A DNA stretch of 62,776 nucleotides from Candidatus Eiseniibacteriota bacterium (lineage in GTDB: Bacteria > Eisenbacteria > RBG-16-71-46), in assembly GCA_020849095.1 (NCBI GenBank), contig JADLGX010000320.1, forward strand, positions 1 to 62,776. The letters are read 5' to 3'. The position numbers and the translations under genes were made by a program. Numbering within the stretch: the first letter of the stretch is position 1; every line of letters starts with the position of its first letter. Positions 3,516-31,298 of the stretch are shown piece by piece. The notes below the pieces were generated by a model. The model made no database searches, was not told where the DNA came from, and worked only from the letters and a program-made list of their open reading frames with translations.

Positions 3516-6500
3516 ACACCGGCACGACCCCCGTCGATTCGACGTCGAACTGCATGCCGAGCAGTGCTCTGGCCTGCTGCTCTGGCGGCGCGTCGAAGTT
3601 GAAGAGTACTCCACGGCGTGGTGTGCGAAGGAATCCGACCCCCTGGTCAAAGCGAAGTACGAGCACGTGGCCGCTCGCGTACTCGAGGCGCATCTCGCGC
3701 GCGTGCGGAAGCTCGTTGCGCCACGTCTTGATCGCGATCGTGGCCGGTAGGTTCGCAACCTTGAAGCAGTGCTCGAGGACTTCACGGTACTGACTGCCGC
3801 CTTGGAAATTGTGGGTGAGGAGCCGTGAAAGCTCGCGCGCATCCGGGTCCAGCGCGAGCAGGTTCACCTCGGAAGTATCTGCCATGCCCCCGGGGCGGGC
3901 TCGCGTGGCATGGAGCAACTCGATCAGGGTTCGAACTGCCAGCGGCGACACCAGGTAGCGGTCCGTGTAGCAAACGCGCGTCACGCGAGCTTCGCCGCCA
4001 AGCAGGTTCTTCGCTAGCTGAGACTTGCTGCAAACGAGATCCCAGAAACGCTCTCCGACGCCACGAATCGAAGCGTTGAGCTCATTCGTGATTCGAACTT
4101 CGGTGTACTGGCCCGGTATGGGCTTGCGCACCGACGCCGCGGGGACGGTCCTCGCGTGCAGCGGCGGTAAGGGACCGGCAGCGCGGACTCGGACATACCT
4201 AGCGTCGTCGGCGTTCCCGGCCCAGATTCCGCCTGGCATCAGGCCTTCCGGGCTCGTGCTCGCCCACCGAATAGACCGCTCGCTGCCGCCCATTTCGACG
4301 AGCAACCATCCGCTACCGACGCGCTCGCCACGGCCGGGGACGAGGGCAACGGTAATCCCGTCTGCTTCCAGGAAATTCGCGAGCGCGTGGGTTTCCTGCC
4401 AGTTCATGTCGGCTAGGCACTCCTCCGGGAGCACCAGCGTCACCGTCGTGTCCCCCCTGGCCCAGGTCGACAACCTGTCGCGTAGCTTCCATTCCCGGAG
4501 ATCCCAGTCCTCAACTCGCCCACCGAGGTGAACGCGAACCTCCGCGACCCCAGAACGTTGCGCATGAACGAGCATGGCCACAGGTATTGGCATGGCTTCG
4601 AACTGCGAGTCGGGCCCGAAGAACCGAAGCTGGTCCGGAAGCTCGAGCGCCAAAAGCAGCGACTCGCTCAGTGCTTGCTGCGCGACACGTCGATCGAGGT
4701 GCTCGACAGCGTCTTGAGTCTCGTACGAAAGCAGGCACCCGTGGCACGCCCGATCGCACCCCCGCGGGCAGTCCAGTATCCGGGCTGCATCGCGCAAGAG
4801 GGCATGCAGGTTTTCGCCGACGTAGCTGACATAGCCGGCACCACCGTCGGCCAGGTCGAAGAGCATGATGGATCGCCGGAGGACTCCGTCGGCGCTCTTG
4901 TTTCGCCCAACCGCCCACCCTACCTCGCGAGGCTCGACACCCAGCTTGCGCGCCAGCGCTTCGCGAAGGGCGACCGCTATGGATGCGCATGCTGGGGCGC
5001 TGTCGATGGGTTGACCCGTCGCCGGGTCCTTGAGCTGGATCTCGACGACGTCTGTGTGGCTCGCGCCGCCGAACGCAAGCCACCGCTGGACTCCAAAGCC
5101 GCCATCGGCTCCTTGGCAGGGACTGCCCTTACGTCCCCCGCGAAGCCGGCGATGCTGGAGGAACTGCGTGGACAGGTCAGCCATCGGTGCCGGTGAACCC
5201 GCTGGGGCGCTCTCCGACTCGGCATACCCACAATGGAGGCAGAGCGCGTAGCCGTGGCCGTGCTCGCCCATACTGTGGTGGTAGACGAAGCCGTTAGGGT
5301 CGTACCGGTAATGCCCGGCGCGTGGGTCGGGCAAGACTTGCCAGGGGCCTCCGCCGGCCGAGATCCACGGCGCGATACGAGGGATGTACCGCTCGAGGGA
5401 AAGGTCGTTGCTGGGCTGGCTCCGAATGTCGACAGCGAATCCCGCCGGCTCTAGGTATCGCCGAGTTTTTACGGTGCTCCCACACGCGTGGCACAGCTGT
5501 TGTCGAAGAGTCGACGTGCCTGCCGCTCCACATTCGGCGCACCTCCACGCAAATCGAAGAGCTTGAACCTCTCGATGGTCTCGATCATCCGGGCGAATCA
5601 GCCAGTTGAGACTGACCCCGCGGGACTCGTACACCATCCCGTCGATGATGACGCCGCTCCCCGGTGCGTACTCGACGATGGCACGCTCGAGCTGTCGGCT
5701 GGGGTAGCCGCGATCGCGCTGAAAGCCTTCGTCACGCTCCTCTTCTTTCTCCTGTGCAAGCTGCTCGGCAGTGGTCGTGATGAACGGGACGACGTGCAGC
5801 GGGAACCCGTAGGCCGGCAGGAAGCCCTCGCTAGCCAGGGTCTTCAGCAAGTACTCGTTGGTCAGGCGCTTCAGTTGGATCGCTAGCGCCCGCTGAACGG
5901 CCTTCGCATCTTCGTCCTGCCGTGGCTCGCCGCCGACACCATCTAGCTCGACGCGAACAGCTTCGTGCTCTGCACACCAGCGGTCACGGATGACTCGAAT
6001 TCGGTCGCGCGCAAGGTCGATCTTTTGATCGGGGTTTCCATCGAGTGGAGTACCCCTCGTGACGGTGCCCACAGCCGACAGAACTTCAGCATCCCCTGAC
6101 GCCTCGTCGCTGAGCCACGCCACGAACCGATCCGCGATCGGTGCGACCCCGTCCTTTTCCAGAAAGAACCACCCACACGTCAGGCGGTGAGCGTCGGTTG
6201 CCCCGACTCTTCGAAGGAAAGCGGCTAGCAGCACAGAGTGAACATGCCGCTGGCAGATCCGGTCACTCTCGAGTGCGACGCGTGGAACGTGGACTGGCTG
6301 CTCGAAAGGCCACTTCGTGTTCTCGAACACCGCCGTTCCATGCGGAGACGCCTGGCAGAGCGTGAGCACCACGGCGCGAAGCTCACCGCGGCGACCCGCT
6401 CGACCCGCTCGCTGCTGGTAGTTCGCTGGCCCCGGGGGCGCGTTGTTCATGGCAACCGCCGACAGACCTCCGATGTCGACGCCCATTTCCATGGTCGTCG

Positions 6501-16779: not shown

Positions 16780-16795
16780 TGCGAATGCCGTGCCA
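16780..16795 (-). promoter_or_regulatory. sigma54-type promoter candidate TGGCACG-GCAT-TCGCA
   Basis: Matches TGGCACG-N4-TTGCW at 7/7 and 4/5 with exact GG-N10-GC spacing. Predicted +1 near 16769, 4 nt before the helicase ATG at 16765. Confidence 0.5.
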
Positions 16796-17372: not shown

Positions 17373-19106
17373 CTACCCCCTCCCCAACGCCGCCGCGAAG
17401 TCGGAGCACGTCTCGAAGCGCTCCGAGGGAGCATCGCGAAGGGCCCGAGCGACCGCTGTATTCTGACGATTCGAAAGGCGCCCGAACTCACGCGGCTTGT
17501 AACGTCGTTTGAACACGAGCCCCTCCAGCATAGAGCAGAAAACGAGCGCGAGCGCGTACTGGTCCGTCTTCCGTTGCGCTTTCTCTCCGCGGAGCTGCTC
17601 CGGCGCCGCGTACGCCCGCGTGTACGCGACCGGAGCGGTGGCAAAGACCGTGGTGTTTCCGACCGTGTTCTTGCCGGTGCGTCCCTGGACCGCAATGCCG
17701 AAGTCGCCCAGGCGCACCTCCCAGGGGCTAGTGGTCGTCTTCACGAGCACGTTACCCGGTTTCACATCTTGGTGGAGAACGCCCTTCTTGTGCGCGTAGT
17801 CGAGACCGGCCGCCGCCTGACGAACGACCTCGATGGCGACGGCGAGCGCAAGCGAGTCGCCGCTTTCGATGATTCGTTCCAGCGATGTGCCGCCGTGGTC
17901 CATCACCAGGTACGTCCCGACGGTAGGATCGCAACCGTAGTCGATGTAGGTGCAGATGTTCTGGTGACGCAGGTCCCACGCGATGCCCATCTCCTCGCGG
18001 AGACGGGCCCGGGCTGGGTCCGACGAGGTCTTCAGCACGACCAACTTGCGCGGGTGCTCGAGCCGCATCGCTTCCCAGGCAACGCCGAAACCGCCTTCGC
18101 CGAGGCGACGGCGCAGCTCGTAGCGGCCGCTGACAATCCGCCTAGTTCTCTGGGAGGGCGGCAGCTCCGAGTCTTCGGTCTTGCGTCGCCTTTCCGGGGC
18201 GGGTGTCTTGCGCTCTTTTTCCTCCTCCTCCTCGCCCTCGGCCTCGCTGGTCGCTTCACCCACGAGTTCGGGTATCACGCGAGCCAACTTGGTGTTCCCG
18301 TTTGCTGCTTCCAGCCGGCGGACCACTTCTTTAGGCTCCACGTCGGCAACGTCGGCAACCCACCGTAGAAGTGACGGTGCGCGCATGGCGGTCGCGACCC
18401 TGAGCTCCGAGAGCATGGCGCGCGACGGTCCAAGCGCGCTGATCGGTTGCCCGGGCAGGAGGGTACTGAGCAGCGTCCTCCCGTTCGCCGCGCGAGCCTT
18501 GGCCGACAAGCTTCTGGCGGACAGGTCAACGCGACGAGCAAGCCAATTCAGAAGCGGCGGAGCGCGGCGGAGCGCTGCGGCAGGAATCGCACCCACGAGC
18601 TCGAAGACGGCAAAATCCCTCTCCGCATCCAGGAACCGCCGCTGGCTCCCGGGACGAACGGCATCATCGTGCTCTTCCTGTTCGTGGTCGCCGTTCTCGT
18701 CGTCCGCTTCCTCTAGCTCTTCCTGTTCATCGTCCTCGTCGTCGTTGTCGTCGTTGTCGTCGCTCTCGTCCTCCCCTTCCACGAGCTCTTGGAAGACGTT
18801 CGCAAGGAGGCTCTTGCCGTGCTCCTTGTTGAGTCGCGCTCGCACGGTGCGGAGTGAAAGGCCCGTTGCAGCGACAAGTTCCTGCTCGAGGTTCGCGTCG
18901 CGTGCGGCAGCTACAGTGATCCCCTCGAGCCTTGCGGAATCCTCGGGCCACTCATCCGAAAAGATGCGGCCTGCGAGCGTGTTGCCGTGAGCTCGAGTGA
19001 CGCGTGCCGTCACCTGGCGCGCCGAAAGCCCGGTGATTGCGACGAGCAGGCGCAGGTCGCGCTCGCCGAGCATGGAGACGCGGACGTCAGCGAGGCGCTC
19101 GGTCAT
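17373..19106 (-). CDS. Hanks-type Ser/Thr protein kinase with repeat-containing N-terminal region and acidic tract, 577 aa
   Basis: Kinase motifs LGEGGFG, VVLK, HQDVKPGNVL, GDFG and APE in the C-half. The N-half has four ~29-aa HTH/SAP-like repeats and a D/E-rich tract (nt 18663-18779). Confidence 0.85.
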   Translation of the reverse strand: MTERLADVRVSMLGERDLRLLVAITGLSARQVTARVTRAHGNTLAGRIFSDEWPEDSARLEGITVAAARDANLEQELVAATGLSLRTVRARLNKEHGKSLLANVFQELVEGEDESDDNDDNDDEDDEQEELEEADDENGDHEQEEHDDAVRPGSQRRFLDAERDFAVFELVGAIPAAALRRAPPLLNWLARRVDLSARSLSAKARAANGRTLLSTLLPGQPISALGPSRAMLSELRVATAMRAPSLLRWVADVADVEPKEVVRRLEAANGNTKLARVIPELVGEATSEAEGEEEEEKERKTPAPERRRKTEDSELPPSQRTRRIVSGRYELRRRLGEGGFGVAWEAMRLEHPRKLVVLKTSSDPARARLREEMGIAWDLRHQNICTYIDYGCDPTVGTYLVMDHGGTSLERIIESGDSLALAVAIEVVRQAAAGLDYAHKKGVLHQDVKPGNVLVKTTTSPWEVRLGDFGIAVQGRTGKNTVGNTTVFATAPVAYTRAYAAPEQLRGEKAQRKTDQYALALVFCSMLEGLVFKRRYKPREFGRLSNRQNTAVARALRDAPSERFETCSDFAAALGRG

Positions 19107-19171: not shown

Positions 19172-20065
19172 CTAACTGCACTTGGCAGCTCGGCCCGGTA
19201 CGGCATGGCGGTCGACGAGCTTGAATGTCGCGGTGCCCGCGTCAAAGTCAGATCGCACTCGGTGCCAGATGTCCGGGTCGAGGAGCGACACGTCGGTCTG
19301 CTGCCCCGGCGGCTTCTCGTCTAATCCCCCATCGACACGGACGCCGCCAAGGTCCGTCACGATGTAGCGAGCGTGAAATTGATCGCCGTCCGGAAGTTCG
19401 TTCCAGCGAAACAGCTCAACCTTGATTCCCCTCGGGATGAGTCGCGCAAGCTGGCTGTCGCACGAACTGCGGAAGAAGCGCTCGTCTGCCCTCGCGGTAA
19501 GGTGGACTTCGCATCGCCGCAGCCCACGTCCGTCCCGCGCGGCTTCGGTCAGAAGCGCCTCAAAGACCTTTCGGAAGCGCGGTGTCTCCGGGCCGAAATA
19601 CGGGTCGACCAGCTGAAGCTCGCGCGAGCACCTGAGGAGAGGCGACAAGAGCCCCGCAAGCGCGCGTCCCGTCTGGGCCACTCTGCACTCTCGAGCGACT
19701 CTCCAAGGTTCGGCGTCGGGGTCTAGGTCATCACGATTGACCACCTTGGGATGCGCTCTCGGGTTATCGAGGGCCACAATCGCCTTGAACAGCTCGGCCT
19801 CGCGCTCGGTTTCGACCAGCCAATCCCCCGCTGAGAAGTCGCGGGCTACGTCGCACACGGCCAGTGCTGTTGCCCTTCGGAGCCGATCCACAATGCGGAG
19901 CCTCTGCACAGGCTTCCAAGGCGCGGCCTCGAGGACGAGGTCCTGCCACTTCCTCGGACATCTTGCGATGAAGCGCCCAGTGCGGGGACCACACTGATCC
20001 ACGATTCGGCCGAAGTTGGCCTCATCTGCGATCGCAGATGGATCAACGGCAAAAACCTCGAACAT
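19172..20065 (-). CDS. Partner protein of the ATPase, 297 aa, with a C-terminal HxR(x)4D motif (PLD-like?)
   Basis: The ATG at 20063-20065 shares one nt with the ATPase stop (TGATG). C-terminal LVDPYF ... FHARYIVTDLGGVRVDGGLD resembles an HKD motif with K replaced by R. Confidence 0.6.
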   Translation of the reverse strand: MFEVFAVDPSAIADEANFGRIVDQCGPRTGRFIARCPRKWQDLVLEAAPWKPVQRLRIVDRLRRATALAVCDVARDFSAGDWLVETEREAELFKAIVALDNPRAHPKVVNRDDLDPDAEPWRVARECRVAQTGRALAGLLSPLLRCSRELQLVDPYFGPETPRFRKVFEALLTEAARDGRGLRRCEVHLTARADERFFRSSCDSQLARLIPRGIKVELFRWNELPDGDQFHARYIVTDLGGVRVDGGLDEKPPGQQTDVSLLDPDIWHRVRSDFDAGTATFKLVDRHAVPGRAAKCS

Positions 20066-21723
20066 CAAAAGAGCTCCCGCGACCGCTCCTCGAAGAAGCC
20101 TTTCGGCCATTGGTCAATGAACTCGCCCTGATCGTCTACACGGAGCTGATGCACGATCGTACCACCCAGGCCGCGCTCCAAATAGACGACGGCAAGCTGA
20201 GCTGGGCGCAGGCCGGGGTGGCCTTCAGGTAGCTCGCCTCCTGCGGTTTCGCGGATTCGCCGGAGAAGTCGGAGGATGAGGTGCTCGCTGTGGGTCTCAA
20301 CGATGAAGCGGTGCGCCTTGCCCGGTTGAATTCCTGCAACCAGGAGATCCGCAATGTCCGCCTGAAGGCGAGGGTGAACGTGGACCTCGGGCTGCTCGAT
20401 CGTGATGGTCTGCTCGTCTGATGCAAGCACTTGCACGACGAACGGCAGGAGCTGACTGATCCCGAAACCCACGTCCGGCAGTGCAACCGAGGTTGCGGCC
20501 GATCGCTTCTTGTCTTGAAGCCGCACTTCGAACAGATCATTGGAGCGACTACCCACCGGTTCGATGGCAATGCGATATCCAACATCAAGGCGAGTGAGCC
20601 AGTCGTTCGTCTCTTCGACCAGCTTCGGCCGACGAAAGAGAAGGTCCGGAAGCAGGTTCCCCGAGTAGCCAACATCAGGCGGCGTCGTCCCGGTGAAGAT
20701 GTACAGGCGCTGGGGAGCTTTCCTATAGGGCCCCAGCGGAAAGAGACGCTCGAGCGCCATCTCCAACGACACCCCCGCTTCCATCAATGTGTCCGCAGCT
20801 TCGATGAAGTGCGTCCGTAGCGGCAATCTGGATCGCCGGTGGTACGTCGCGGCGGTCCGCTCGGGGTATTCCCCCCCCGCATCTGGACTCACGGCAAACG
20901 GGATGAATCCGTCCAACGCGACAACTCCGCCGTGCGATGCGGATCGCCTCCGCGCTGCGTACGCGGCGAGGGAGAACTCAGAGTTGTAGAACCTGATCGC
21001 TGCGTCAACGGATTCGACCGTGAACTCCTCGTCCGGAAACAGCCGCCCTTGCCGATCCGGGTGTTGTCGCGCGATCTCTTCTCGCATCGCTGCGAGTGAC
21101 TCCAGAATCTCCGTGCGCAGTTGAAGGGTTCGACTGTATTCAGCCTCCCAGTAGTGGTCGTCGGCTACGACCTCCGTACACACGGCACCGCGCGGTCTTC
21201 CTGGGCCCTTCCTATCCCGTCGCATGCCGTACGGTCCAAAGGGTGAGAAACGGCGACTGTGCTGTAGCTGTGCACCGTGCAGATCCTGCGGTTCGAACTG
21301 GGCGACTGATTCAAGTCGTTGCCCATCAAAGACACGAAAGCCCGCTAGAGCGACGTCACCTGCCCCTTTTTGCCGGAACGATACCTCCAGACCAATGGCC
21401 CGCCCGGTCTCACCTTCGTCGCGTGTGCGGAGCATCCTTGACGAGCCTCGCAAGTCGAGCCGAAGAGACAATGTCCGCTCGGCATCGTGGTCGTACAAGA
21501 GCTCGTGAAAGCTCCCAAGATCCACCAACCCGCCCTCCGCGCGCGGCAGGAGCAGCGCTCCGTGTTCACGGCTGAAGCGTGTTTGCTTCAGAAGGTTGAG
21601 CGCATTCAAGATCGAGCTCTTCCCCGCGCTGTTCTCGCCGTAGATGAGGGTGATGGGAGCGAAGTCCAAGCGCACCCTGTTGCCGAAGGCCTTGAAGTTC
21701 TCCAGCTCAATTGCGTGAATCAT
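20065..21723 (-). CDS. AAA_15/ABC-type ATPase with DUF3696-like C-terminus, 552 aa
   Basis: N-terminus MIHAIELENFKAFG...GENSAGKSS (Walker A). Walker B/D-loop region ITIEQPEVHVHP, then ETHSEHL. C-terminal tail EFIDQWPKGFFEE. GGAGG lies 6 nt before the ATG at 21721-21723. Confidence 0.75.
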   Translation of the reverse strand: MIHAIELENFKAFGNRVRLDFAPITLIYGENSAGKSSILNALNLLKQTRFSREHGALLLPRAEGGLVDLGSFHELLYDHDAERTLSLRLDLRGSSRMLRTRDEGETGRAIGLEVSFRQKGAGDVALAGFRVFDGQRLESVAQFEPQDLHGAQLQHSRRFSPFGPYGMRRDRKGPGRPRGAVCTEVVADDHYWEAEYSRTLQLRTEILESLAAMREEIARQHPDRQGRLFPDEEFTVESVDAAIRFYNSEFSLAAYAARRRSASHGGVVALDGFIPFAVSPDAGGEYPERTAATYHRRSRLPLRTHFIEAADTLMEAGVSLEMALERLFPLGPYRKAPQRLYIFTGTTPPDVGYSGNLLPDLLFRRPKLVEETNDWLTRLDVGYRIAIEPVGSRSNDLFEVRLQDKKRSAATSVALPDVGFGISQLLPFVVQVLASDEQTITIEQPEVHVHPRLQADIADLLVAGIQPGKAHRFIVETHSEHLILRLLRRIRETAGGELPEGHPGLRPAQLAVVYLERGLGGTIVHQLRVDDQGEFIDQWPKGFFEERSRELF

Positions 21724-21799
21724 GGTTGACCTCCGAGCCTCCTGTGCAAGCGTCGGGCCATGCGAGACAAGCACCAGTCCGATCGATGTTTGGCGGTCG

Positions 21800-21838
21800 G
21801 ATGCCCTTCAAGTTCTCCAGCTCGATGCGTGTGATCAT
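21800..21838 (-). pseudogene. Vestigial 5' end of an AAA ATPase gene ([13 protein letters not shown]...) coupled to the hsdS stop
   Basis: The ATG overlaps the hsdS stop (ATGA). 39 nt are about 77% identical to the start of the functional ATPase gene 115 nt downstream. The frame then degenerates. Confidence 0.45.
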
Positions 21839-23013
21839 GCTCGTCCCAGTTCCCCGCGAAACGCCTGCTGCGTGAGAGCGTCGAACAAGTCGGCCGCGAT
21901 CCTGTCGTGCGCTCTCTGCGTGGCTTCCACCTTCGCGCAACGCCCAGCGACCGTTTCCAGCGTGCGCTGAAGCGCGAGCGGGGGAACCGGTAGCGCCAAC
22001 TCGCGAATTCCCGGGCCACTGAAGTTTTGCTGCGCCGATTGCCGCGAGCGGCGCGCGATGAACGCCTGGACACGTTCACTGGCGATCACCATCCGCGCAT
22101 AGCGCGGCAGCACGCGCTTCTTCAGTTGCAGGCGAATAAAGTAGGCGCCCGCGACACACTCGGGCGCCTCTTCCTCGACGAGTGCCGTCTTGCCGACTGT
22201 CGCCCCGGTTCTTGCGAAAATGATCTCGCCCGGCTTGAGCGCGTACCGGGCACGGTCCGCCTCGGACATCGAGAGGCGGGGCATCGATTCGAAGTCCAGC
22301 GCCCCCCCCGCGCTGAGGTCAGTGATGCGCACGATGCGCACTCCGTCACTCGAGTACTTCTCGTTGTAGAAGCGAGGTCCGTACTCCATTTTCTGCAGCT
22401 CGGCGCCGAACGTTGACACCGGCCACCCCTTCGGATTCGTCACCGGGTCCCCGAACATCTCCAAGAACGCCGACCGCAGCAGCTCCTCGGTGAGCGCGAT
22501 GGCGTGCTTCCGCTTGCGCCGAACCGCGTCGGCATTGTCGAGGATGTCGGCGATGCGGCGCTGCTCGGGAAGCGGGGGCAGCGGCAGCTCCAGTGCCTCG
22601 AGGTCACGAGGGCTCAGACGTGGAAGATTTGCGCCGGCGCACCTGAGCACGGCCTCTTCGACCGTCTTGGGGTGACGCAGGAAATGGAACAGGAATCCGC
22701 GGTCAACCCGCGGGCCAGGAAGTATCGGCACAATGTCCGTGCTGCAGATGCCGTAGAAATCCGGGCGCGCGGTCTTCTTCAGGTAGGGTCGCAACTTCCC
22801 AAACAGGATGTGCTTCGGCCCAAAGCGAAACTTGTTGCTGGCCAGCACGCCCGATACCACGGGCGACATCCCGACGAAGTTTCCGTCACTGTCGATATGC
22901 TCAAGCCCGACGTAGTTCGTCCCCGTCGCGATGTCTCCGGGCAGAACAGCGTCGCGCTCGATGCTCGCGACGTCGTCAACACGCACGCGCTGCCAGGCGG
23001 CGCCGGTCGTCAC
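21835..23013 (-). CDS. hsdS: Type I restriction-modification specificity subunit
   Basis: Two target-recognition halves separated by the conserved [24 protein letters not shown] spacer. ATGA overlap with hsdM. Confidence 0.85.
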
Positions 23014-24512
23014 AACATCCCCTCCAGCGCCTTCAGGTCCTTCGCAATCTCCGCCTCCAGCGCCCGCAGCTTGCCGATGATCACCTTCGGCGACTCGTAC
23101 TTCACCTCTTCGTGCACTGTCTCCTTGTATCGGTTGATGGAGAGGTCGAAGTTCTTCTCCCGAATGTCAGCGACCGGCACCATGAAGTGCTTGGCCGTGC
23201 GGTCCGCGTCCTGCTTCGGGTTCCTTTTTCGCCAGCGCTCGAGCGCATCCGGCAGGTCGTTCTCCTTGACCGGGTCGCGCTTGTCGTCGAGCGAGAAACC
23301 GTCGGCGCCGACGTCGTGGAAGAAGACGTGATCCGTCTCGCCATTCTTCGTGAATACGAGGATGGCGGTCGACACGCCCGCGTACGGTCGGAACACGCCC
23401 GACGGGAGTGAGATGACAGCCTCGAGCTGGTTGTCGTCGACCAGCATCTTGCGGAGCGCGACGTGGGCTTTCGACGATCCGAAGAGAACGCCGTCAGGCA
23501 CGATGGTCGCGCTGCGGCCGCCCTTTTTAAGCATCCGCAGAATGAGCGCGACGAACAAGAGCTCCGTCTTCTTCGTCTTCACCTTCTGAGTGAGCGACGG
23601 GTGCACATCCTCGGCGTCGAGGCTCCCCTTGAACGGCGGGTTCGCCAGCACCACGTCGAAGCAGCCGCTGGCCTGCTTGGGGAAACGCTCCGGGAAGGAG
23701 TTCGAGAGCGTGTCCTGGTAGTGGATGTCGGGGTTGTCCACGCCATGGAGCATCAGGTTCATCGACGCGATACGGAGCATGGTGCTGTCGAAGTCGAAGC
23801 CATGGAACATGTCGTTCTGGATGTGGCTCCGGTGCTGCTCCAGCTTGTCGCCCGTGTAAACCCTCTCGCCGCTCTCGGCCTTGTAGGTACCCTTGGCGGA
23901 GCTGTGCTTCTCGAGCAAGTACAGCATTGTCCCAACAAGGAAGCCGGCCGTGCCGCACGCCGGATCGCCCACGGTCTCGGTCGGCTTCGGCTCGAGCATC
24001 TCGACCATGAAGCGGATGATGTGGCGTGGAGTCCGGAACTGTCCGTTGATGCCGGCCGTCGTCAGCTTGCTCAGCAAGTACTCGTAGAGGTCGCCCTTGG
24101 TGTCGCCCTCGGTGATGGGCAGGGCATCAATCCTGTTCACGGCGGAAACGAGCAGGCTCGGCCTCTGAATCATGAGCTGTGCGTCGGCCATGTACTCGCC
24201 GAAGGTCGTGCCGCCGTTGAGGCTGCGGAAGTGCGGGAACACCTTGTCGCGCACGATGCCGAGCATCTTCTCAGCCTTGAGGTGCCGGAAATGCGACCAG
24301 CGCAGATCCTGCTCCTTCGGGCCGAAGACGGGCTTGAACGGCTTCTTCGTCCGCGCGGCACGCGCCTCGTTGCGCGTCTCGGCGACGTCGAGCAAGCGCG
24401 CGAACATCAAGAACGAGATTTGCTCGATGACCGTCAGCGGATTGGTGATACCGCCGGTCCAGAACTCCTCCCAGAGCTTGTCGATGTCGTTCTTGAGCTT
24501 TCCAGTGATCAT
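23010..24512 (-). CDS. hsdM: Type I restriction-modification N6-adenine DNA methyltransferase
   Basis: HsdM-type N-terminus ([21 protein letters not shown]), AdoMet motif [10 protein letters not shown] and catalytic NPPF (VLANPPFKG). ATGA overlap with hsdR. Confidence 0.9.
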
Positions 24513-27500
24513 GCTTGCTTGCTCTCAGGGGGTGGGCTCGACGGGTCTGCCTTGCGCGGTTGGAACGCCTCGAGGATTCCGAGGAGCTCGTCGAGCTGAC
24601 CCTTCTCGGTGAACAGGCCATCGACACCGTTGGCGTGAAGGTCGGTGAAGGGAGGGTCGTAGAGGCGCTCGAGCTCGATGCCGCCGTTCTGTGCGATGTG
24701 ATTCTTCAGTAGCTGCAGAAACCTGAGCTGCTGGGCCGAAAGGTGCAGGTGCTTGTGGACGAAGCCAGTGAACGCGGCATCGACCGCTTCGGGATCGAGG
24801 CCCACGAGACCGCGAAGCGCGTCAGTCAGCGATTGCCTCGTCTCCGGCTGGATCAGGTGCTTGAGGTTCGCCTTGTCGTCGACCTGGAGCACCAGCTTCG
24901 CGAGTGCGTCCAGGTCCTCGTCCCGGACTGTCTTGCCGGCGCGAATGCGCTGGAGGGTGGGGTCATTCATGAAGTGCTCGCGCAGGACTCTTTCCACGCG
25001 ATGCCGGTACTCGATCAGATCCAGGCCATCGAGCGTGGGCGTGCGATCGTAGCTGTGCACCACTTGCTCTGCGACGTCGTACACCTTGGGTACGAGGCGA
25101 GAGGGATTCGTCTGCGCCTGGTACTTCATGATGCCGCGGAGCTCGGTTCGGATCTCTTCGAGCTTGGCGGCGGTCACGGTGGCCCAGAGCTCCTTGCTCT
25201 GGACCGCGCGAATGGCCTCGGCCTTCGCCTTGACCGGGTTCTGGTTCTTCATGAGCAGCGCGACCTCGGCTTCGACGGCAGCCTTCAGATCCGCCACCCT
25301 GGGCGACCCCTTGATCACCGCCTCCTCGAGGCGCGTCATGAGCAGATCGAACCGGTAGGCATCCTCGTCACCTCGGATGTTGCGCCACTGCATGAGCGGC
25401 GCGGCGATGGATAGCAAGTCTGCCTTGGTCGCTGCCGCGAACTGGGCGACGGTGTCCCGGTTGGACAGGAGCTCGAGCTCCCGCCGCCGGTCGCGCACGT
25501 CGATGCTCCTCGAGTCCATCGCGTCGCGGACGTCCCTGACCAGGAGGTCCACGGTTGACTGGAAGTCAGGCTCGCTCATGGCGTCGAGCGCCGCCTGAGC
25601 GACAGCCATGCGCGCTTCGAACAAGTGTTGAAGCAGGGACTTCTGGGGAGCCGGCTGCTTCTCCTGGTACTCCTCTTCGAAGAACCAGAAGTTCTTGCCG
25701 TGGTCGAAGATGAGGAACTCGGACTTGTCGTTGCCGGGACCAAACAGGTCTCGACATAGCCGGGTCCCGCGCCCAATCATCTGCCAGAACTTCGCCGGCG
25801 TCTTGACCGCCTTTGCGAAGACGAGGTTCACGACCTCGGGGACGTCGATGCCCGTGTCGAGCATGTCGACAGAGATGGCGATGACGGGCTCCGAGTCCTT
25901 GGTCTTGAAGTCGTCGATGAGCTGATCGGCCCGCGGTTCCTGGTGGTCGATGACTCGGCAGAAAGCGCCGCCGTACTGCGGGTACATCTCCGCGAAGAGC
26001 TCGGCGAGGTGGACTGCGTGCAAGTGACTCTTCGCGAAGACGATCGTCTTGCCGACGCGGCTGCCCGTGGCGTCGCGGATGCCCTCTTGCATCAAGCTCC
26101 GGAGGACGACACGGCTCGTGTCCTTGTTGAAGACATCGCGATCGAGTTGTGCGGGCGTGAATTCAACGCTGTCTGGCTGGTCTTCCTGCGCCTCCAGCTC
26201 CGTCTGCTGGTCCGCCGACATCTGCGAGTACCTGAACCCCTCCTCGCGGAACCGCGTCTGAAACTCGCGCACCCGGAACGGCACGAGGTACGGAGGAATC
26301 GAGCTCACCGCCTCCTCGTAGGTGAAGTTCGCTGTCGGGTCGTTGTGCTCGCACCCAAACAGCTTGAAGGTGTCTCGGTCGGCGTACCTGAGCGGCGTAG
26401 CCGTCAGGCCCACCTGGAACGCATCGAAGTACATCACCAGCTCGCGGTACTTCTTGTAGATGCTCCGGTGCGACTCGTCGAAGATGACTAGGTCGAAGAA
26501 CCCGACGTCGAACGTCTCGTAGCACTTCAGCATCGCTGGGTAAGTCGCGAGGTAGATGCGCTTGTCTCGGTCGGACGAGGTCGTGCTGTCGACTACCACT
26601 CGAGGCTCGTCCGGGAGGAACTCCTTGAAGACGTTGTTGGCTTGCTTGCGAAGCTCGCGCCGGTCGCAGAGGAAGAGAATGCGTTTGGCCCAACCCGCAC
26701 GCATGAGCAGATCGCAGAGCGACACGGCGACGCGAGTCTTGCCAGTGCCGGTTGCCTGGACCAGCAGCGCACGGCGAAACTTCTGCTCGAAGCGCTCGTT
26801 CACGCGCTTCATCGCCTCGAGCTGGTACATGCGCTCGGCGATGGTGATGTCCGGGGCCATGGTGGCCAGCGGTTTCTTGTTCTTTCGCTGGTGCAGGAGG
26901 TATTCGAGACTGTCTTTCGAGTAGAAGCCGTAGACCTTTCGCGGGGTGAACCCCTGCGAGTCGTCCCATACATAGATGTCGATGCCGTTGCTGTAGAAGA
27001 TGACCGGCCGCTGTCCGGTTTCTTTCTCGAGGCAAGTGGCGTAGATGCGTGCTTGTTCCTGACCGATGCGGGCGTCCTTGGCGGTCTTCTTCGCCTCGAC
27101 CACGGCCAACGGCTTGCCGTCATCGCCGTAGAGCACGTAGTCGGCATAACCTTCTCGCGACTCGGTGGGCATCGTCGAGAGCTGGATCTCTTGACCCACC
27201 TGATCGTTGCTCTTCCCGCCAGCGCCGACGTTCCAGCCCGCCTCGACCAGTGCTTGGTCGATGAGGCGGCGGCGCGTTGCCTCCTCGCTCAGATGGAGGA
27301 CGTTCGCCGCTTTCTGTCCCTCGCTGCGGAGCGCCTCGAGCTGTTCCTGGGTGTGTGCGACGAAATTCTCGGCCGCCTCGCGCTTCCGCCGTTCGTCTTC
27401 GAGGTCGGCGAGCACCTTCTGGAGTTGCGCGTCCTGCTGGGCCAGCTTCTCCAGGGCGTCCTTCTTCGCCTTCTGGAGCGCCGCGCTGTCGGTCGCTGCC

Positions 27501-27940
27501 GTCGCCGGAGGGTCTGAGTAAGCCGGGCACTGAGCGCGGTTGCCCTGATCGATGCGGAGGAAGACCCACTGCGCGATGTCGAAGGCGTCACGAAGCGCCT
27601 GGAGCGCGGCCTGCGCGCTCGGAGGGTCGTGGTGAGCAGCCTTGTTGCCTGCTTTGCGGATTGTGTGGAGCTTGCCGAGCACCACATCGGGGACGGCGGT
27701 CCGAAACGGCGTCTCGTTCAGGAGATCGAAGACGCTATCGGTGTACGGCCGTGGCAGTCGGTAGGTCTCGTAGATGATGGCGACGACGGTCTCCATGAAG
27801 GAGCGCAGCTTCACGAGCGCGCTTGCGGGGTCCGGACGCGCGTAGACCTCGGCGAACCCACCGAGGTCGGCGAGCTCGGGATGCCTCGGTCGCAGGAACT
27901 CGAAGTTCCTCGACTTCATCAGCGCGTCCTCGGGGAGCAT
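24509..27940 (-). CDS. hsdR: Type I restriction enzyme R subunit with N-terminal DUF4145/HEPN-like module and EcoEI-type C-terminal domain
   Basis: N-terminal NFEFL...[10 protein letters not shown], helicase motifs VQATGTGKT and DESH, long helical C-domain. The alternative start ATG 27919 (MKSRNFEFL) has a GAGGA 7 nt upstream. Confidence 0.85.
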
Positions 27941-27972
27941 GCTCGCCCCAGCAGCACGTTCCGTTCCATCAT
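27938..27972 (-). promoter_or_regulatory. 35-nt element ATGATGGAACGGAACGTGCTGCTGGGGCGAGCATG (sigma54-like TGGAAC-N5-GTGC) ending at the hsdR ATG
   Basis: GG-N10-GC spacing. It overlaps the activator's TGA stop. 27/35 identical, ungapped, to the element at 29563-29597 on the other strand. Confidence 0.45.
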
Positions 27973-29465
27973 TCCTTCACCCCGTACCTCGTGAGCCAGC
28001 CTTTGAGCGTTTGGTAGCTGGCGAGGCCGACCAACGATGCCGCCAGGGTCTTGTTGCCCTGGGCCTCCTGCATGGCGCGAGACAGGTAGTGGCGCGCCAC
28101 GTCCGCCATCAAGTCCGACAGGTTGAAACCGCCGCCCAAGGGGCGGCCGAGGACTTCGGGAGTCAACGACCTTGGCGCGGCGAGTAGCGCATCGCGCGCC
28201 TCGCCCTCATCGATGACCGCGCCCCTCGACCAGATGAACGCCCGCCGAAGGGTGGACTCGAGCTCCCGCACGTTGCCAGGCCAATCGTACCGGAGAAGAA
28301 GATTTCTTGCGCCGACAGAAACCTTCTTCTGGACGGCGCCGGGCCGGCTGGCCATCTCCGCGTTGAGCTTGTCGAGCAGCCTATCGAGCAGAAAACTAAC
28401 GTCGCCCTCGCGCTCCCTGAGCGGCGGCGTCTTGAGGACCAACACCGCCAGCCGAAAGTAGAGGTCTTCTCGGAATCTTCCTTCGCGCACCTCTTGGAGG
28501 AGGTTGCGGTTGGTCGCGGCGATGACACGCACGTCTACGGGCACGTCGGCCCGGCCGCCAATGGGCCGTACTCTTCGCTGCTGCAGAGCTCTCAGCAGCT
28601 TGGCCTGGTGCTCGACCGCGAGCTCACCGACTTCGTCCAGGAAGAGCGAGCCGCCGTCCGCTTGCTCGAAGAACCCCTTGTGGTCGCGGTCCGCGCCGGT
28701 GAAGGCGCCCCGGGTGTGCCCGAAGAACTGCGACTCGAAGAGCTCCTTTGGGATAGCGCCGCAGTTCACTTCGACGAAGGGCTTGCCCTTCCGCGGACTT
28801 TCCCCGTGAATGGCCTCGGCGAGCAACTGCTTGCCAGTGCCGGATTCACCTTCGATGAAGACGGACTCGGAGAACGGGGCGGCTTGCCGGGCACGGCGGA
28901 CCAAGCGCTTCATCACCTCGCTTCGGTGCAGAATATCACCGAATTTTGGCTCTTCCGGGCGAACACCGTCAGCAAGCTTCGCCAGGTCCGCGCTGGTCTG
29001 TTGGACGGCGGCCGGGATGAACTCCGCAGCCAGCTCGAACGGAACGTTGACCGTCGCGACGCCCTTCTCCCTCGAGGACTCTATGAGCTCCGCCCCGAAC
29101 CGGGTCTTGGCGACGATGATCCAGATCGCCGCCATCGCGGGGGTGCCGGGGCTGAGGTGGAAAGTGAGCCTGGTCTTGGCGCCGTGCTTCTCGAGCGTCC
29201 AGGCGACAGTGCTGCTCACCGCGCGGTAGATGTCGGCGTGGTCAGTGGGAGACGACAGCACATGTTGCTGAACGACCACTTCCGCGTCGGTCTGCTTCGC
29301 AACCCAACGCACGTACGGGTTGATCTGCTCTTTGGGGAAGTTGTTCAGCAGAACGACCTGGTCGAACTTGCGCGCCGCCAGGGCCTCCGCGATGGGGCCC
29401 GCGCCGCCACCCTCAGCGGCCTTGAGATCGGTCAGGCCGATCCACGCCAGGAGCACACGAGCCAT
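27969..29465 (-). CDS. CARF-like (RtcR-type) sensor domain fused to a sigma54-dependent AAA+ activator and Fis-type HTH, 498 aa
   Basis: GESGTGKQ Walker A, GAFTGA loop (HTRGAFTGA), RFREDLYFRL, C-terminal HTH. The N-domain MARVLLAWIGLTD...TFHLSPGTPAMAAIWIIV resembles the RtcR CARF pattern. Start set at ATG 29463-29465; the 151-aa upstream extension in the track was rejected. Confidence 0.75.
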   Translation of the reverse strand: MARVLLAWIGLTDLKAAEGGGAGPIAEALAARKFDQVVLLNNFPKEQINPYVRWVAKQTDAEVVVQQHVLSSPTDHADIYRAVSSTVAWTLEKHGAKTRLTFHLSPGTPAMAAIWIIVAKTRFGAELIESSREKGVATVNVPFELAAEFIPAAVQQTSADLAKLADGVRPEEPKFGDILHRSEVMKRLVRRARQAAPFSESVFIEGESGTGKQLLAEAIHGESPRKGKPFVEVNCGAIPKELFESQFFGHTRGAFTGADRDHKGFFEQADGGSLFLDEVGELAVEHQAKLLRALQQRRVRPIGGRADVPVDVRVIAATNRNLLQEVREGRFREDLYFRLAVLVLKTPPLREREGDVSFLLDRLLDKLNAEMASRPGAVQKKVSVGARNLLLRYDWPGNVRELESTLRRAFIWSRGAVIDEGEARDALLAAPRSLTPEVLGRPLGGGFNLSDLMADVARHYLSRAMQEAQGNKTLAASLVGLASYQTLKGWLTRYGVKE

Positions 29466-29498
29466 CGGCCCTGGGAGGGTAACAACTCCTCTGGCGCC

Positions 29499-29512
29499 AG
29501 AAGAGATCTTCT
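29499..29512. promoter_or_regulatory. Palindrome AGAAGA-GA-TCTTCT (possible UAS) in the divergent intergenic region
   Basis: 6-bp arms, extended imperfectly to CCAGAAGAGATCTTCTTGG. Centred about 88 nt upstream of the predicted +1 of the 29563-29597 element. Confidence 0.4.
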
Positions 29513-29562
29513 TGGGCGGGGGGATTCGACCCATGGAAGAACCGAATGATCCGGCGACTGCG

Positions 29563-29597
29563 ATGATGGAACGGTTCGTGAAGAAGGGACGTGCATG
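29563..29597 (+). promoter_or_regulatory. 35-nt element ATGATGGAACGGTTCGTGAAGAAGGGACGTGCATG ending at the ATG of the coiled-coil nuclease gene
   Basis: Twin of 27938-27972. -24-like TGGAAC; the -12 position reads GTGA (GA instead of the canonical GC). Same 28-nt distance from TGG to ATG. Confidence 0.4.
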
Positions 29598-31298
29598 ACC
29601 ACGCAAGCTCCCCTCACGGTTCTCGTCGGCGTCGAAGCCGACGTCGTCGAAGCGCATATCCGAGACCGCCGCACCGACGCGGTGTCCGTTTTTGAGCCAC
29701 TGAACGAAGCCCAGCGGGTGGGTCTTGTCACCGACGCCTGGACCGTCGGCCTTCGCGCTCTCATGAACGCCTACAAGCAAGCCGAGGAAGCTCGCTTGCA
29801 GGACATCGGTCGCACGCTGAGCGAGGACCTGGAGCGGCAGCTCGCCGCGTACGTCGAGCGGCAGCAGGCGACGTTCGTCCAGGTGCTGGCGCGGTACTTC
29901 GACCCCCGCGACGGGCAAGTTGTCGCTCGGCTCGAGGGATTCCTCCGCGACGGTGGCGAGCTCGCACAGACCATGGACCAGTTCCTGGCGCCAGGGCGGG
30001 GCGCTCTGGCACAGACGCTGGCCCGCGAGCTCGGAGAGAACAGCTTGCTGCTCAAGCGCCTGAGCCCGACGGACAGCGAGGGAGTGATCTTTTTGCTGGA
30101 GTCCAAGCTGCGCGAGGCGCTGGCTTCAAGCCAGGTGGAGGTTGCCCGTGCGCTCGATCCGAGCGCCGAAGACGGTGCCGTCGCCAGGTTCCTGCGCGCT
30201 CTCCGCCAGGAGCTCGAGAAGGCCGACAGCGACCGGAGCAAGCAGCTCGCGTTGGCCACCAAGGCATTGGACGCCAACGACGAGACGTCGCTCTTGAGCC
30301 GAATGATGCGCGAGGTTTCCGACGCCCGAACCGCGTTCGTCACTTCGATGAACCCGGACCTGCCCGACTCCCCGATGGCGGTGCTCAAGACGGCGCTCTC
30401 GACCCTGCTCGAGCAGCACGTCCAATCGCAGCAGGAAGCCATGGAGCGCATGCAGGAGCGCCAGCAGAAGTTCGAGGCGGACGTCCGCGAGGCACTCGTC
30501 CGTATCGAAGAGCGCAAGCGCGGCGAGCTCAAGTCACCTCGAGGCGGCATTGCCTTCGAGGACGCGGTAACCCGCTTCGTCCAGCGGTCCGTTCAAGGCG
30601 CGCCCGTCACCGTTGACGCGACCGGCAATACCGTTGGCGCCAAGGCGGGCTGCAAGGTCGGCGACCAGGTGCTCCGCTTCACGGCCGAGAGCGCGTACTC
30701 CGGGTGCGCGCTCGTGGTAGAGGCCAAACGAGAGGCCGGGTACACGGTGACCCAGGCGCTGGCGGAGCTCGAGCTGGCTCGCGGTAACCGCTCGGCGGGA
30801 ACGGGTCTGTTCGTAATGTCCAAGAGCCACGCGCCGAAGGGGTTCCCGAACTTCGCGCGTTACGGCAGCGACATCCTCGTCGTCTGGGACGACGAGGACG
30901 AAGGGACTGATCCCTACCTTCACGCAGCAGTCGTCTTGGGCCTCGCACTGGCGAGCCAGCAGAGGCGTAGTGAGGACGAGGGCGACATCAGCGCCCTCGC
31001 CGACATCGAACATCGCATCCAGAAAGAGGTCGACCGTCTGGGCAGAATGCGGGGTCTGGCCGAGTCCATCCAGGGCGACGCCGAGAAGCTGGCTGACGAA
31101 ATCCGGAAGGGTGGCAAAGGCCTGGACCTGCTGCTCCGCAAAGCGAAGTCCACGCTGAAGGCGCTGAACGTGGAGTTGACCGAAGCCGAGGAAGCAAGGG
31201 CCGAGCCGGTCGGGCTGGCGGCGGGGTCGCTGGTGGAGGCGAGGGGGGCGCTGGCTGGTGGCGACGACGGCACGGGCGACGCAGACGCGCGACACTGA
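29595..31298 (+). CDS. Coiled-coil protein with C-terminal PD-(D/E)XK-like domain (RmuC/DUF2130-like), 567 aa
   Basis: About 330 aa of heptad-like Q/E/A/L/R-rich sequence, then SPRGGIAFEDAV...KVGDQVLRF...CALVVEAKRE (D ... E-x-K) ...GLFVMSK. Confidence 0.65.
   Translation: MTTQAPLTVLVGVEADVVEAHIRDRRTDAVSVFEPLNEAQRVGLVTDAWTVGLRALMNAYKQAEEARLQDIGRTLSEDLERQLAAYVERQQATFVQVLARYFDPRDGQVVARLEGFLRDGGELAQTMDQFLAPGRGALAQTLARELGENSLLLKRLSPTDSEGVIFLLESKLREALASSQVEVARALDPSAEDGAVARFLRALRQELEKADSDRSKQLALATKALDANDETSLLSRMMREVSDARTAFVTSMNPDLPDSPMAVLKTALSTLLEQHVQSQQEAMERMQERQQKFEADVREALVRIEERKRGELKSPRGGIAFEDAVTRFVQRSVQGAPVTVDATGNTVGAKAGCKVGDQVLRFTAESAYSGCALVVEAKREAGYTVTQALAELELARGNRSAGTGLFVMSKSHAPKGFPNFARYGSDILVVWDDEDEGTDPYLHAAVVLGLALASQQRRSEDEGDISALADIEHRIQKEVDRLGRMRGLAESIQGDAEKLADEIRKGGKGLDLLLRKAKSTLKALNVELTEAEEARAEPVGLAAGSLVEARGALAGGDDGTGDADARH

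Follow-up and report, generated by a model that had tools for sequence, protein, structure and literature searches.

A pair of adjacent genes in a Candidatus Eiseniibacteriota bacterium, encoding an ABC-type ATPase and a smaller partner protein, is a real two-gene module with a probable anti-phage role. The two look like a relative of the Menshen system that has no sensor and is switched by sigma-54, rather than a wholly new kind of system, and the reading that we favor, and consider reasonably likely, is that they form a self-contained ATPase-effector defense module of the Menshen type without a DNA-sensor gene. Both genes are on the reverse strand, as are all other features given by coordinates here, in a 62,776-nucleotide stretch of DNA that was analyzed as a whole (the window). 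The ATPase gene (552 aa; 20065..21723) runs from an ATG at 21723 to a TGA stop at 20067-20065. The gene of the partner, the putative effector (297 aa; 19172..20065), begins with an ATG that has one A in common with that stop (ttTGATGttc), just as the first-pass annotation had reported. That annotation also described the pair as inserted behind hsdS, which the coordinates bear out. Directly upstream is a type I restriction-modification (R-M) operon (21835..27940), recognized by Pfam and PADLOC matches and made up of hsdR (27940..24509), hsdM (24512..23010), and hsdS (23013..21835), the last lying 111 nt upstream of the ATPase gene. On the other side, no terminator was found between the partner gene and a kinase gene 65 nt downstream. 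The kinase was considered as a third component and rejected, having no homologue in any related locus, and no conserved third gene was found downstream of the pair across the related loci.

The ATPase carries the motifs ELENFKAFG, GENSAGKS, IEQPEVHVHP, and ETHSEHL and the tail EFIDQWPKGFFEERSRELF, so that every motif listed for it earlier is present in the translation. Its earlier assignment to the AAA_15/DUF3696 type agrees with the Pfam matches (AAA_15, 3.7e-22; DUF3696, 3e-5), to which AAA_21 (7e-18) can be added. The best-scoring PADLOC models are PDC-M55A (4e-50), HEC-03B (1e-48), and NsnB (1.2e-46), with weaker matches to AriA (1e-25), GajA, PtuA, and mad3. By these matches, it is classed as an NsnB-like ABC ATPase of the AAA_15/DUF3696 type. 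To briefly describe its parts, the Walker A motif GENSAGKS (residues 29-36; 21616..21639) is kept as G.NS.GKS in all full-length homologues, and an H-loop is also present. The Walker B region TIEQPEVHVHP (20371..20403) has EQ where a DE dyad is canonical, and IEQPE.H.HP is invariant across 37 loci. With Gln at the position of the catalytic Glu, the ATPase could bind ATP without hydrolyzing it quickly. Also kept in the ATPases of the 37 loci are the GxG signature, here VGFGISQ, and the WP.GFF.ER..ELF pattern of the DUF3696 C-terminal tail (residues 507-552; 20068..20205; Pfam DUF3696 at 507-551), which ends in WPKGFFEERSRELF. The middle of the protein, about 220 residues (approximately 100-325), is a hypervariable insert with 3-14% identity across homologues.

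How consistently do the two genes occur together? Related loci were gathered with a 10-sequence sub-alignment of a 53-sequence partner set, and the ATPase and partner are adjacent in all 42 of them, from more than 10 phyla, a count that overstates independence because the loci are partly kin (several, for example, are from Vicinamibacterales). The pairing goes well beyond what chance would give. Of 37 loci, 19 have a 1-nt overlap between the ATPase stop and the partner start, 2 have an overlap of 4 nt, and in another 14 the two are separated by at most 8 nt. By these counts, the earlier claim of a conserved partner coupled to the ATPase holds in the related loci, and the gene arrangement argues that the two genes are translationally coupled wherever the partner family occurs. 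Within its own lineage, the pair is sporadic, being absent from 40 searched relatives (15 of the same genus), and sits among defense genes. Among the related loci, tandem duplicates of the pair occur, and its defense neighbors include type I R-M, DruH/DruE, RtcR-CARF, and DUF2130.

The family of the partner is large, with 1,719 representative clusters (50% identity) in many phyla and a pairwise identity of about 30%. The single partner sequence has no match in Pfam, NCBIfam, PADLOC, PHROGs, or PDB beyond noise and a marginal match to BrxL, and the 53-sequence profile likewise finds nothing usable in these databases. The noise consisted of Twinfilin and succinate-semialdehyde dehydrogenase. Conservation is concentrated at a few positions. 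In LVDPYF (residues 151-156; 19598..19615), D154 directly follows the second strand of the PLD domain and is D in 167 of 172 homologues and E in the other 5. Residues 230-249 read FHARYIVTDLGGVRVDGGLD in the translation and hold the HxR(x)4D...G.D motif HARYIVTDLGGVRVDGGLD (19319..19375), just before the fifth strand. The first-pass annotation had allowed that the His, Arg, and Asp of this motif might vary among homologues, but H231 and R233 are each invariant (170 of 170 aligned homologues), as is G247. Position 238 is D in 93 homologues and E in 62, D249 is found in 152, and H188 is near-invariant. This pattern, at about 30% identity, is typical of an active site. The canonical H-x-K-x4-D-x6-G-S-x-N is absent; the motif is instead H-A-R-x4-D...G-L-D, with an invariant Arg for Lys and no GSxN. 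Residue 131 is R or K in 168 of 172 homologues but Q in the partner of the window, and this copy might therefore be impaired. A similar H-x-R context had been pointed out in the C-terminal extension of a DruE-like protein in the same island. The string LPHAREMRLEY is indeed there, at residue 2009, but the proposed similarity was rejected as unsupported: this C terminus has no HMM match and aligns to the partner family with an hhalign E value of 0.41.

An AlphaFold model of the full partner (pLDDT 94.3, pTM 0.90) divides into two domains. The N-terminal one (residues 1-122; 19700..20065; domain model pLDDT 91) is an alpha/beta domain for which Foldseek matches are enriched in PIN folds but weak (E 0.02-0.4, TM 0.4-0.55), namely Chp1 PIN, PINA, AF0591, SMG5/SMG6, Nmd4, and VapC. 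D/E8 is its sole conserved acidic position, and it lacks the full catalytic acid set. The domain may tentatively be called PIN-like, the best Foldseek E value being 0.02. The C-terminal half (residues ~123-297; 19175..19699) is, in the model, a single-copy PLD fold, and Foldseek together with the BrxL-C/MIT_C matches described below points to the MIT_C-like type. Its top PDB matches are FAM83A (3.8e-4), TrmBL2, PLD4, Streptomyces PLD, and PssA, all five with probabilities of 0.97-1.00 over about 170 columns. The earlier proposal of a PLD fold with HKD-like spacing and Arg for Lys is supported by the same matches. The model places D154 after strand 149-153 and H231-A-R233 before strand 234-237.

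The link to MIT_C and BrxL comes from several comparisons of marginal strength. Positions 533-662 of the PADLOC BrxL model, its C-terminal part, match 4 of the 53 partner-family members (best 5e-6) and are the sole PADLOC matches among the 53; the window's own partner matches the model at 8.8e-4. Pfam MIT_C matches 1 of the 53 (E 0.005). An hhalign comparison of the family with one BrxL-C-like domain, taken from a 2009-aa ORF that carries the C-terminal part of the PADLOC BrxL model, gives an E value of 0.0065 over 103 co-linear columns with three motifs aligned. The partner profile did not match the BrxL proteins of 12 BrxL loci in the window's phylum, because the C terminus of those proteins differs, and they match the PADLOC model at positions 1-480 only. 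The partner would thus be of the same PLD-fold subtype as MIT_C (PF16565; human MITD1) and the BrxL C terminus, and all have in common the motifs (I/V)VDPY... and H-x-R-[FY]-I-x-T-[DE]...G-x-G-L-D, though sequence similarity is marginal and there is no PDB sequence match. The protein contexts differ as well, MITD1 being an ESCRT-III binder and BrxL an AAA+ BREX factor.

Menshen consists of NsnA, NsnB, and NsnC, with NsnB being a DUF3696 ATPase (Li et al., NAR 2025, PMC12065111). According to the same paper, some NsnC proteins join an N-terminal inactive PIN domain to an MIT_C-like PB-PLD1 domain with a conserved HDR motif. PB-PLD1/MIT_C domains have a conserved D/E after beta2 and HDR before beta5, and PB-PLD1 is classed among the predicted nuclease effectors, in the same slot as BECR and Toprim nucleases (PMC12065111). 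The pair resembles this system in the following respects. (i) NsnB has EN in place of DE in Walker B and GxG in place of SGG (PMC12065111); the ATPase here likewise has GxG for SGG and, in an altered Walker B, E followed by an amide residue, along with the DUF3696 tail. (ii) The partner comes directly after the ATPase. (iii) The partner's N-terminal domain may be PIN-like and is without the acidic tetrad. (iv) Its C-terminal domain is a putative PLD of the MIT_C-like type, in which D follows beta2 and H-x-R precedes beta5, a match made to the published description of PB-PLD1 alone. (v) Type I R-M is often adjacent in both, and 27.9% of Menshen operons are reported to adjoin BREX, type I/III R-M, or other R-M-like systems (PMC12065111). 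The first-pass annotation knew of no version with such a partner, which is not supported, since NsnC with PB-PLD1 was already published (PMC12065111); by its motifs, the HxR variant of the partner appears to be that MIT_C-like PLD type. That annotation had also raised the possibility that the partner belongs to a known effector family of a named system. It largely does at the level of domain type, but NsnA is missing and no PADLOC partner model matches.

What sets the pair apart from Menshen? There is no NsnA (ParB-DUF262 plus ParBDB) here, and hsdS occupies the upstream slot. DUF262 was found in none of the 10 flanking proteins of the window, nor does it figure in the 25 Pfam families listed for 64 ORFs upstream of the ATPase in related loci (up to two ORFs per locus), so that at most one of the 64 could carry it. 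NsnA is likewise not among the top PADLOC families of these upstream ORFs. Walker B is EQ here and EN in NsnB, the hypervariable insert makes the ATPase about 200 aa longer than the NsnB model, and the PADLOC NsnC models do not match the partner. The published Menshen census could not find an NsnA-less form, because it was seeded on DUF262 (PMC12065111).

Other defense systems follow the same logic as the pair, including PARIS (AriA/AriB), Septu (PtuA/PtuB), Gabija (GajA), AbiL/RloAB, and Mad3/Mad4 of MADS. In these, an oligomer of an OLD/ABC-type ATPase holds or controls a small nuclease effector from the next gene. The effectors are different, being Toprim proteins in PARIS, RloAB, MADS, and Gabija (AriB, RloB, Mad4/DUF4276, and GajA-C) and an HNH protein in Septu (PtuB), whereas the partner has a predicted PLD fold; in Pfam and PADLOC, it has no match to the Toprim or HNH effectors of PARIS, Septu, Gabija, AbiL-RloAB, or MADS. 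MADS membership was considered separately, as island genes match mad2, mad3, mad5, and mad6, and rejected: the scores are far under the curated cutoffs (for the ATPase, NCBIfam MAD3 gives 35 bits against a cutoff of 420 bits), and the partner is not Mad4/DUF4276. The PADLOC candidate systems PDC-M55 and HEC-03 each have a DUF3696-type ATPase component, and the ATPase here matches PDC-M55A and HEC-03B, but none of the 53 partner-family members match PDC-M55B, HEC-03A, or another PADLOC partner model.

The pair also appears to have its own switch. A near-consensus sigma-54 type -24/-12 element, TGGCCCGACGCTTGCA (21745..21760), is found 21 nt before the ATPase ATG. It has a single mismatch, as does just one other site in the window; no sigma-70 promoter was found at the pair. 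Of the 37 related loci, 13 have such an element no farther than 200 nt upstream of the ATPase, where 0.17 would be expected. The gene array begins, upstream of the R-M operon, with the gene for an RtcR-like CARF/sigma-54 activator (27969..29918; PADLOC RtcR_PspF2--CARF_AAA_HTH, 4e-187; Pfam Sigma54_activat, 3e-67), and 17 of 42 loci have a homologue of it on the upstream side of the pair. The pair thus has its own predicted sigma-54 promoter downstream of an RtcR-like CARF activator. Defense superoperons led by RtcR have been described by Bell et al. (eLife 2024, PMC11090510), and the window shows the same layout, with all genes in one direction: the activator, type I R-M, a Ser/Thr kinase, helicase and PLD genes, and Druantia III. 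A pair of ABC ATPase and PLD effector is not named in the text or legends of that paper, where the terms "ABC ATPase" and "DUF3696" do not occur.

How might the pair work? In Menshen models, the DUF3696 tail of NsnB clamps the N-terminal domain of NsnC in a predicted NsnB4-NsnC2 assembly (PMC12065111). By analogy with this assembly and with PARIS and Septu, ATPase dimers would hold the partner via their DUF3696 tails and its N-terminal domain, so that the PLD domain stays an inactive monomer. On sensing a phage cue through its variable insert, the ATPase would alter its ATP-bound state, and the partner would be freed or re-oriented. Two partners could then join their HxR half-sites into one PLD-type active site, like single-motif PLD nucleases, and the active partner would degrade nucleic acid and thereby abort the infection. 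It speaks against this step that, to our knowledge, no enzymatic activity, nuclease activity included, is known for any MIT_C-like PLD domain, whether MIT_C or BrxL-C. The CARF activator may boost transcription once RNA-damage signals build up.

Is the pair a form of Menshen at all? Many pair loci, including that of the window, have a sigma-54 promoter and an RtcR-like activator, which are unreported for Menshen. It is conceivable, if on balance doubtful, that the pair is a distinct, widespread, and unnamed defense system, in which NsnA is replaced by sigma-54/RtcR-CARF induction together with trigger recognition by the ATPase insert, and the HxR PLD domain is a nuclease only upon dimerization of two released effectors. 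On this reading, the MIT_C fold of BrxL and human MITD1 would gain its first enzymatic function.

Both this reading and that of a Menshen-type module give the partner a catalytic role, and an unlikely alternative is that it has none. The PLD domain would then bind phospholipid or membrane, like MITD1, or bind nucleic acid without cutting, like TrmBL2 and FAM83, and the partner would act by membrane perturbation or sequestration. The best structural matches do include the non-catalytic PLD folds FAM83A and TrmBL2, Lys and GSxN of the HKD motif have become Arg and G.D, and the MIT_C domain of MITD1 is a membrane binder according to ref. 87 as cited in PMC12065111. Set against this are the invariance of H231, R233, and G247 and the near-invariance of D154, H188, and D249 at about 30% identity, as well as the classing of PB-PLD1 with predicted nuclease effectors by Li et al.

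Does the module depend on its restriction neighbors? As an accessory of type I R-M, a "restriction-linked ORF" like RloA/RloB or PrrC, the pair would act only with HsdRMS, for example as a backup when restriction is blocked. Its position in the window fits this, as does the same hsdR-hsdM-hsdS-ATPase-partner order in L024 and L004-L006; hsd genes are also nearby in L014, L015, and L047, 4 of the 64 upstream ORFs are type I specificity subunits, and the Menshen frequency quoted above points the same way. Most of the 42 loci, however, have no hsd gene within 4-6 kb, and the pair has its own predicted promoter. In addition, a putative 13-codon remnant of an ATPase 5' end (21800..21838), read from the sequence, begins at the hsdS stop (ATGA), exactly where the intact ATPase gene begins in L024. 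This remnant of an earlier start indicates a cassette replacement, and hence that the pair is a separable module. We therefore regard the accessory role as quite improbable. Least credible, and very improbable indeed, is a role unrelated to phages, in housekeeping DNA repair (an SMC/RecF-like ATPase with a repair phosphodiesterase) or as a type IV toxin-antitoxin-like pair whose ATPase neutralizes a toxic partner: the ATPase N terminus weakly matches RecF, SMC, and Rad50 models, AAA_21 is annotated "putative AbiEii toxin," and tyrosyl-DNA phosphodiesterases are PLD-fold repair enzymes, but the RecF/SMC matches span the P-loop only (residues 1-50) and fall far under curated cutoffs, and the tandem duplicates, defense neighbors, and absence from all 40 relatives make a pattern of accessory defense cargo, not of repair genes.

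Overall, current defense-finding tools miss this module because the partner family is without a Pfam, NCBIfam, or PADLOC model. Seen as a Menshen core without its sensor, the pair would enlarge the Menshen family and give a simpler system, of two genes, in which to study the control of effectors by DUF3696 ATPases. Its recurrent association with RtcR-like CARF activators and sigma-54 promoters suggests that certain abortive-infection effectors are not transcribed before an RNA-damage signal arrives. Catalysis by the invariant His/Arg/Asp site, if confirmed, would hint at an enzymatic role for the MIT_C fold that is found in BrxL of BREX and in the eukaryotic MITD1.

The ATPase and its partner are both encoded on the minus strand, the former from an ATG at 21723 to a TGA at 20067-20065 (552 aa) and the latter at 20065..19172 (297 aa, including LVDPYF and FHARYIVTDLGGVRVDGGLD). 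Every motif quoted for the ATPase in the first-pass annotation is found in its translation, which contains ELENFKAFG, GENSAGKS, IEQPEVHVHP, ETHSEHL, and the tail EFIDQWPKGFFEERSRELF. The coupling described there is equally real: the ATPase stop codon and the partner ATG have one base in common, the last of the former and the first of the latter (ttTGATGttc). Upstream, hsdS ends at 21835, preceded by hsdM and hsdR, and the 111 nt that separate hsdS from the ATPase gene hold a sigma-54-type element and an ATPase-start remnant. The latter, 13 codons of another AAA_15 N terminus (21800-21838, minus), begins at the hsdS stop with an ATGA overlap and then decays. Since the intact ATPase gene of L024, a related locus whose gene order is exactly that of the window, begins exactly at the hsdS stop, the present cassette probably replaced an earlier one. 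Downstream, a Ser/Thr kinase gene (PD-T4-6/mad6-like, 1e-40; 17373-19106, minus) begins 65 nt past the partner stop. No terminator was found between the two, and the kinase gene may be cotranscribed with the pair; no related locus carries a kinase homologue.

What kind of ATPase is it? Pfam assigns AAA_15 (3.7e-22), AAA_21 (7e-18), and DUF3696 (3e-5), and the top PADLOC models are PDC-M55A (4e-50), HEC-03B (1e-48), and Menshen NsnB (1e-46), with AriA, GajA, PtuA, and mad3 scoring far lower. Across 37 aligned homologues drawn from the related loci, the Walker A motif (G.NS.GKS), the GxG-SQ signature, the Walker B motif (h-h-h-h-E-Q-P-E-x-H-x-H-P), the ETHSEHL H-loop, and the tail (WP.GFF.ER..ELF) are essentially invariant. 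Residues ~100-325, by contrast, are hypervariable, with 3-14% identity to homologues against 30-80% in the flanks, and 301 to 627 aa separate Walker A from GxG.

Searches with the partner sequence drew a blank in Pfam, NCBIfam, PHROGs, and PDB sequences; its sole PADLOC match, to the C-terminal part of a BrxL model, is marginal (8.8e-4). The partner nevertheless belongs to a sizable family: when 1.84 billion representatives were searched exhaustively, 1,719 clusters passed E <= 1e-3 and 152 passed E <= 1e-30. Members are almost always ~300 aa long; those named in their source are all labelled "hypothetical protein," and precomputed Pfam domains are lacking throughout. Counted over 172 aligned members, H231, R233, and G247 are each kept in 170/170, and position 154 is D in 167 and E in 5; the possibility, raised at first pass, that the H/R/D residues lack conservation therefore fails. 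Also well kept are H188 (H in 160), position 238 (D in 93, E in 62), and D249 (D in 152), and 19 homologues carry D at position 232. The window copy has Gln131 (19673-19675, minus) where 168/172 homologues have Arg or Lys, as well as V4 for the family E and E85 for the family N, and to judge by these residues it may be functionally altered.

An AlphaFold2 model of the partner, built from 37 homologues (pLDDT 94.3, pTM 0.90), bears out the PLD-like HxR assignment made at first pass. PLD folds head the Foldseek list against the PDB (FAM83A at 3.8e-4, then TrmBL2, PLD4, Streptomyces PLD, and phosphatidylserine synthase), the alignments covering ~170 columns that correspond to the C-terminal half. 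In this half, D154 follows the second strand (149-153), and H231-A-R233 immediately precedes the fifth (234-237). The N-terminal 122 residues, modelled apart (pLDDT 91), give a PIN-enriched but weak list (E 0.02-0.4, TM 0.4-0.55) that includes Chp1 PIN, PINA, AF0591, SMG5, SMG6, Nmd4, and VapC. Any PIN-like domain here would be catalytically inactive, as D/E8 is the only acidic position conserved.

The HxR variant probably belongs to a known PLD subtype. In a set of 53 partner-family members, Pfam MIT_C picks up a single sequence, and the PADLOC BrxL model picks up four through its positions 533-662 (best 5e-6). PB-PLD1, an effector domain of the Menshen protein NsnC, is an MIT_C-like PLD that also occurs at the C terminus of many BrxL proteins (Li et al., PMC12065111). 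A giant 2009-aa protein that is not BrxL bears such a domain as well (L062:1837-7863, G079 contig 95); its C-terminal domain matches positions 507-667 of the PADLOC BrxL model (1.3e-21) and is co-linear with the partner profile across 103 columns (hhalign E 0.0065, weak for a single sequence), pairing IVDPYI with LVDPYF and HDRFIETE...GRGLD with HARYIVTD...DGGLD. This type of C terminus is absent from 12 true BrxL homologues of the window's phylum. The C-terminal ~200 aa of the DruE-like protein (3505-4098, minus), with ...VCYTDRYL...KTWRNELPHAREMRLEY...DQGVGF, recall by eye the partner series VDPYF / RWNELP..HAR / DGGLD; the similarity suggested at first pass finds no support from HMM or hhalign (E 0.41). 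Must the partner be an enzyme at all? A noncatalytic MIT_C-like PLD domain is a real rival, because the only role known for the MIT_C fold is that of a membrane binder, in MITD1.

A scan with one genome per species yielded 42 related loci from Acidobacteriota, Planctomycetota, Desulfobacterota/"Deltaproteobacteria," Myxococcota, Verrucomicrobiota, Gammaproteobacteria, Gemmatimonadota, Deinococcota, Bacillota, Binatia, and others. A homologous ATPase lies immediately upstream of the partner in every intact locus, with a 1-nt overlap in 19/37, a 4-nt overlap in 2/37, and a separation of <= 8 nt in 14/37. The pair has type I R-M genes as neighbours in L004-L006, L014, L015, L024, and L047. Six loci, mostly from Vicinamibacterales MAGs, carry two tandem pairs (L028, L031, L033, L035, L042, and L043), in which the second partner copy has drifted much further from the family (E 1e-17 to 1e-21 with its HMM). 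The closest ATPase homologue (L011:2-2625, Phycisphaerales MAG) is 46% identical from end to end, the insert (hypervariable elsewhere) included. Behind it lies not the usual partner but a 343-aa ORF ending ...VFNDRFVPACGRCFSIGHGLDD, where Asn replaces the His of the HxR motif; this ORF does not match the partner-family HMM and looks like effector divergence or inactivation, and a second, canonical pair lies 1.7 kb downstream. Searches of 40 relatives, 15 of them from the same genus, did not turn up the partner, a distribution that fits horizontally acquired defence cargo.

How is the pair controlled? The ATPase ATG is preceded, at a distance of 21 nt, by the sigma-54-type element TGGCCCGACGCTTGCA (21760..21745). 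Only two sites in the 62.8 kb match TGGCAC-N5-TTGCW with one mismatch, this one and a second (16795..16780) upstream of the helicase gene. An element with <= 1 mismatch lies <= 200 nt upstream of the ATPase in 13/37 related loci, partly kin yet representing at least five lineages, against 0.17 expected from the remainder of the same loci. An RtcR-like CARF/sigma-54 activator homologue, up to 55% identical to the window's, is found upstream in 17/42. With RtcR, type I R-M, a kinase, helicase/PLD genes, and Druantia III, the window has the layout of the defence "superoperons" headed by RtcR (Bell et al., PMC11090510); an ABC ATPase/DUF3696 pair goes unmentioned in the text of that paper.

NsnC proteins have an inactive N-terminal PIN domain, and in AlphaFold 3 models two DUF3696 tails of the NsnB dimer clamp it (PMC12065111). 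NsnB itself has EN for the DE dyad, GxG for SGG, and a C-terminal DUF3696 helix (Li et al., PMC12065111); the window ATPase shares the GxG and the tail but has EQ as its dyad. The window pair thus appears to have NsnB-NsnC architecture. The PLD-like HxR partner and the coupling proposed at first pass stand, whereas the effector type, taken there as unrecognised, was already known from Menshen as PB-PLD1. The pair is not simply Menshen, however. That system is defined by three genes, its census having been seeded on the ParB-DUF262 domain of NsnA (PMC12065111), and the window pair lacks NsnA, its neighbours being hsdS upstream and the Ser/Thr kinase downstream. DUF262 is absent from the 25 Pfam families listed for 64 upstream ORFs of related loci, no conserved third gene follows the pair in these loci, and none of the 53 partner-family members matches the NsnC, PDC-M55B, or HEC-03A models.

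Domain make-up, motif conservation, coupling, context, and promoter element are seen directly; a mechanism for a catalytic partner can be postulated by analogy with the predicted NsnB4-NsnC2 complex, PARIS, and Septu. ATPase dimers would grip the partner N-domain between their DUF3696 tails, and the EQ of Walker B suggests that ATP is hydrolysed slowly and that the ATP-bound state, in which the partner is held, lasts long. The hypervariable insert might read a phage cue, which would alter the nucleotide state and free the partner. Because each partner carries a lone HxR half-site, as in dimeric single-motif PLD nucleases, two would have to pair to form one active site, which would then degrade nucleic acid and bring about abortive infection. 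On top of this, the CARF activator would induce the module through the sigma-54 promoter. The pair, a module absent from PADLOC v2 and Pfam, is best filed as an NsnA-less, two-gene, Menshen-type ATPase-PLD module, often under sigma-54/RtcR control.
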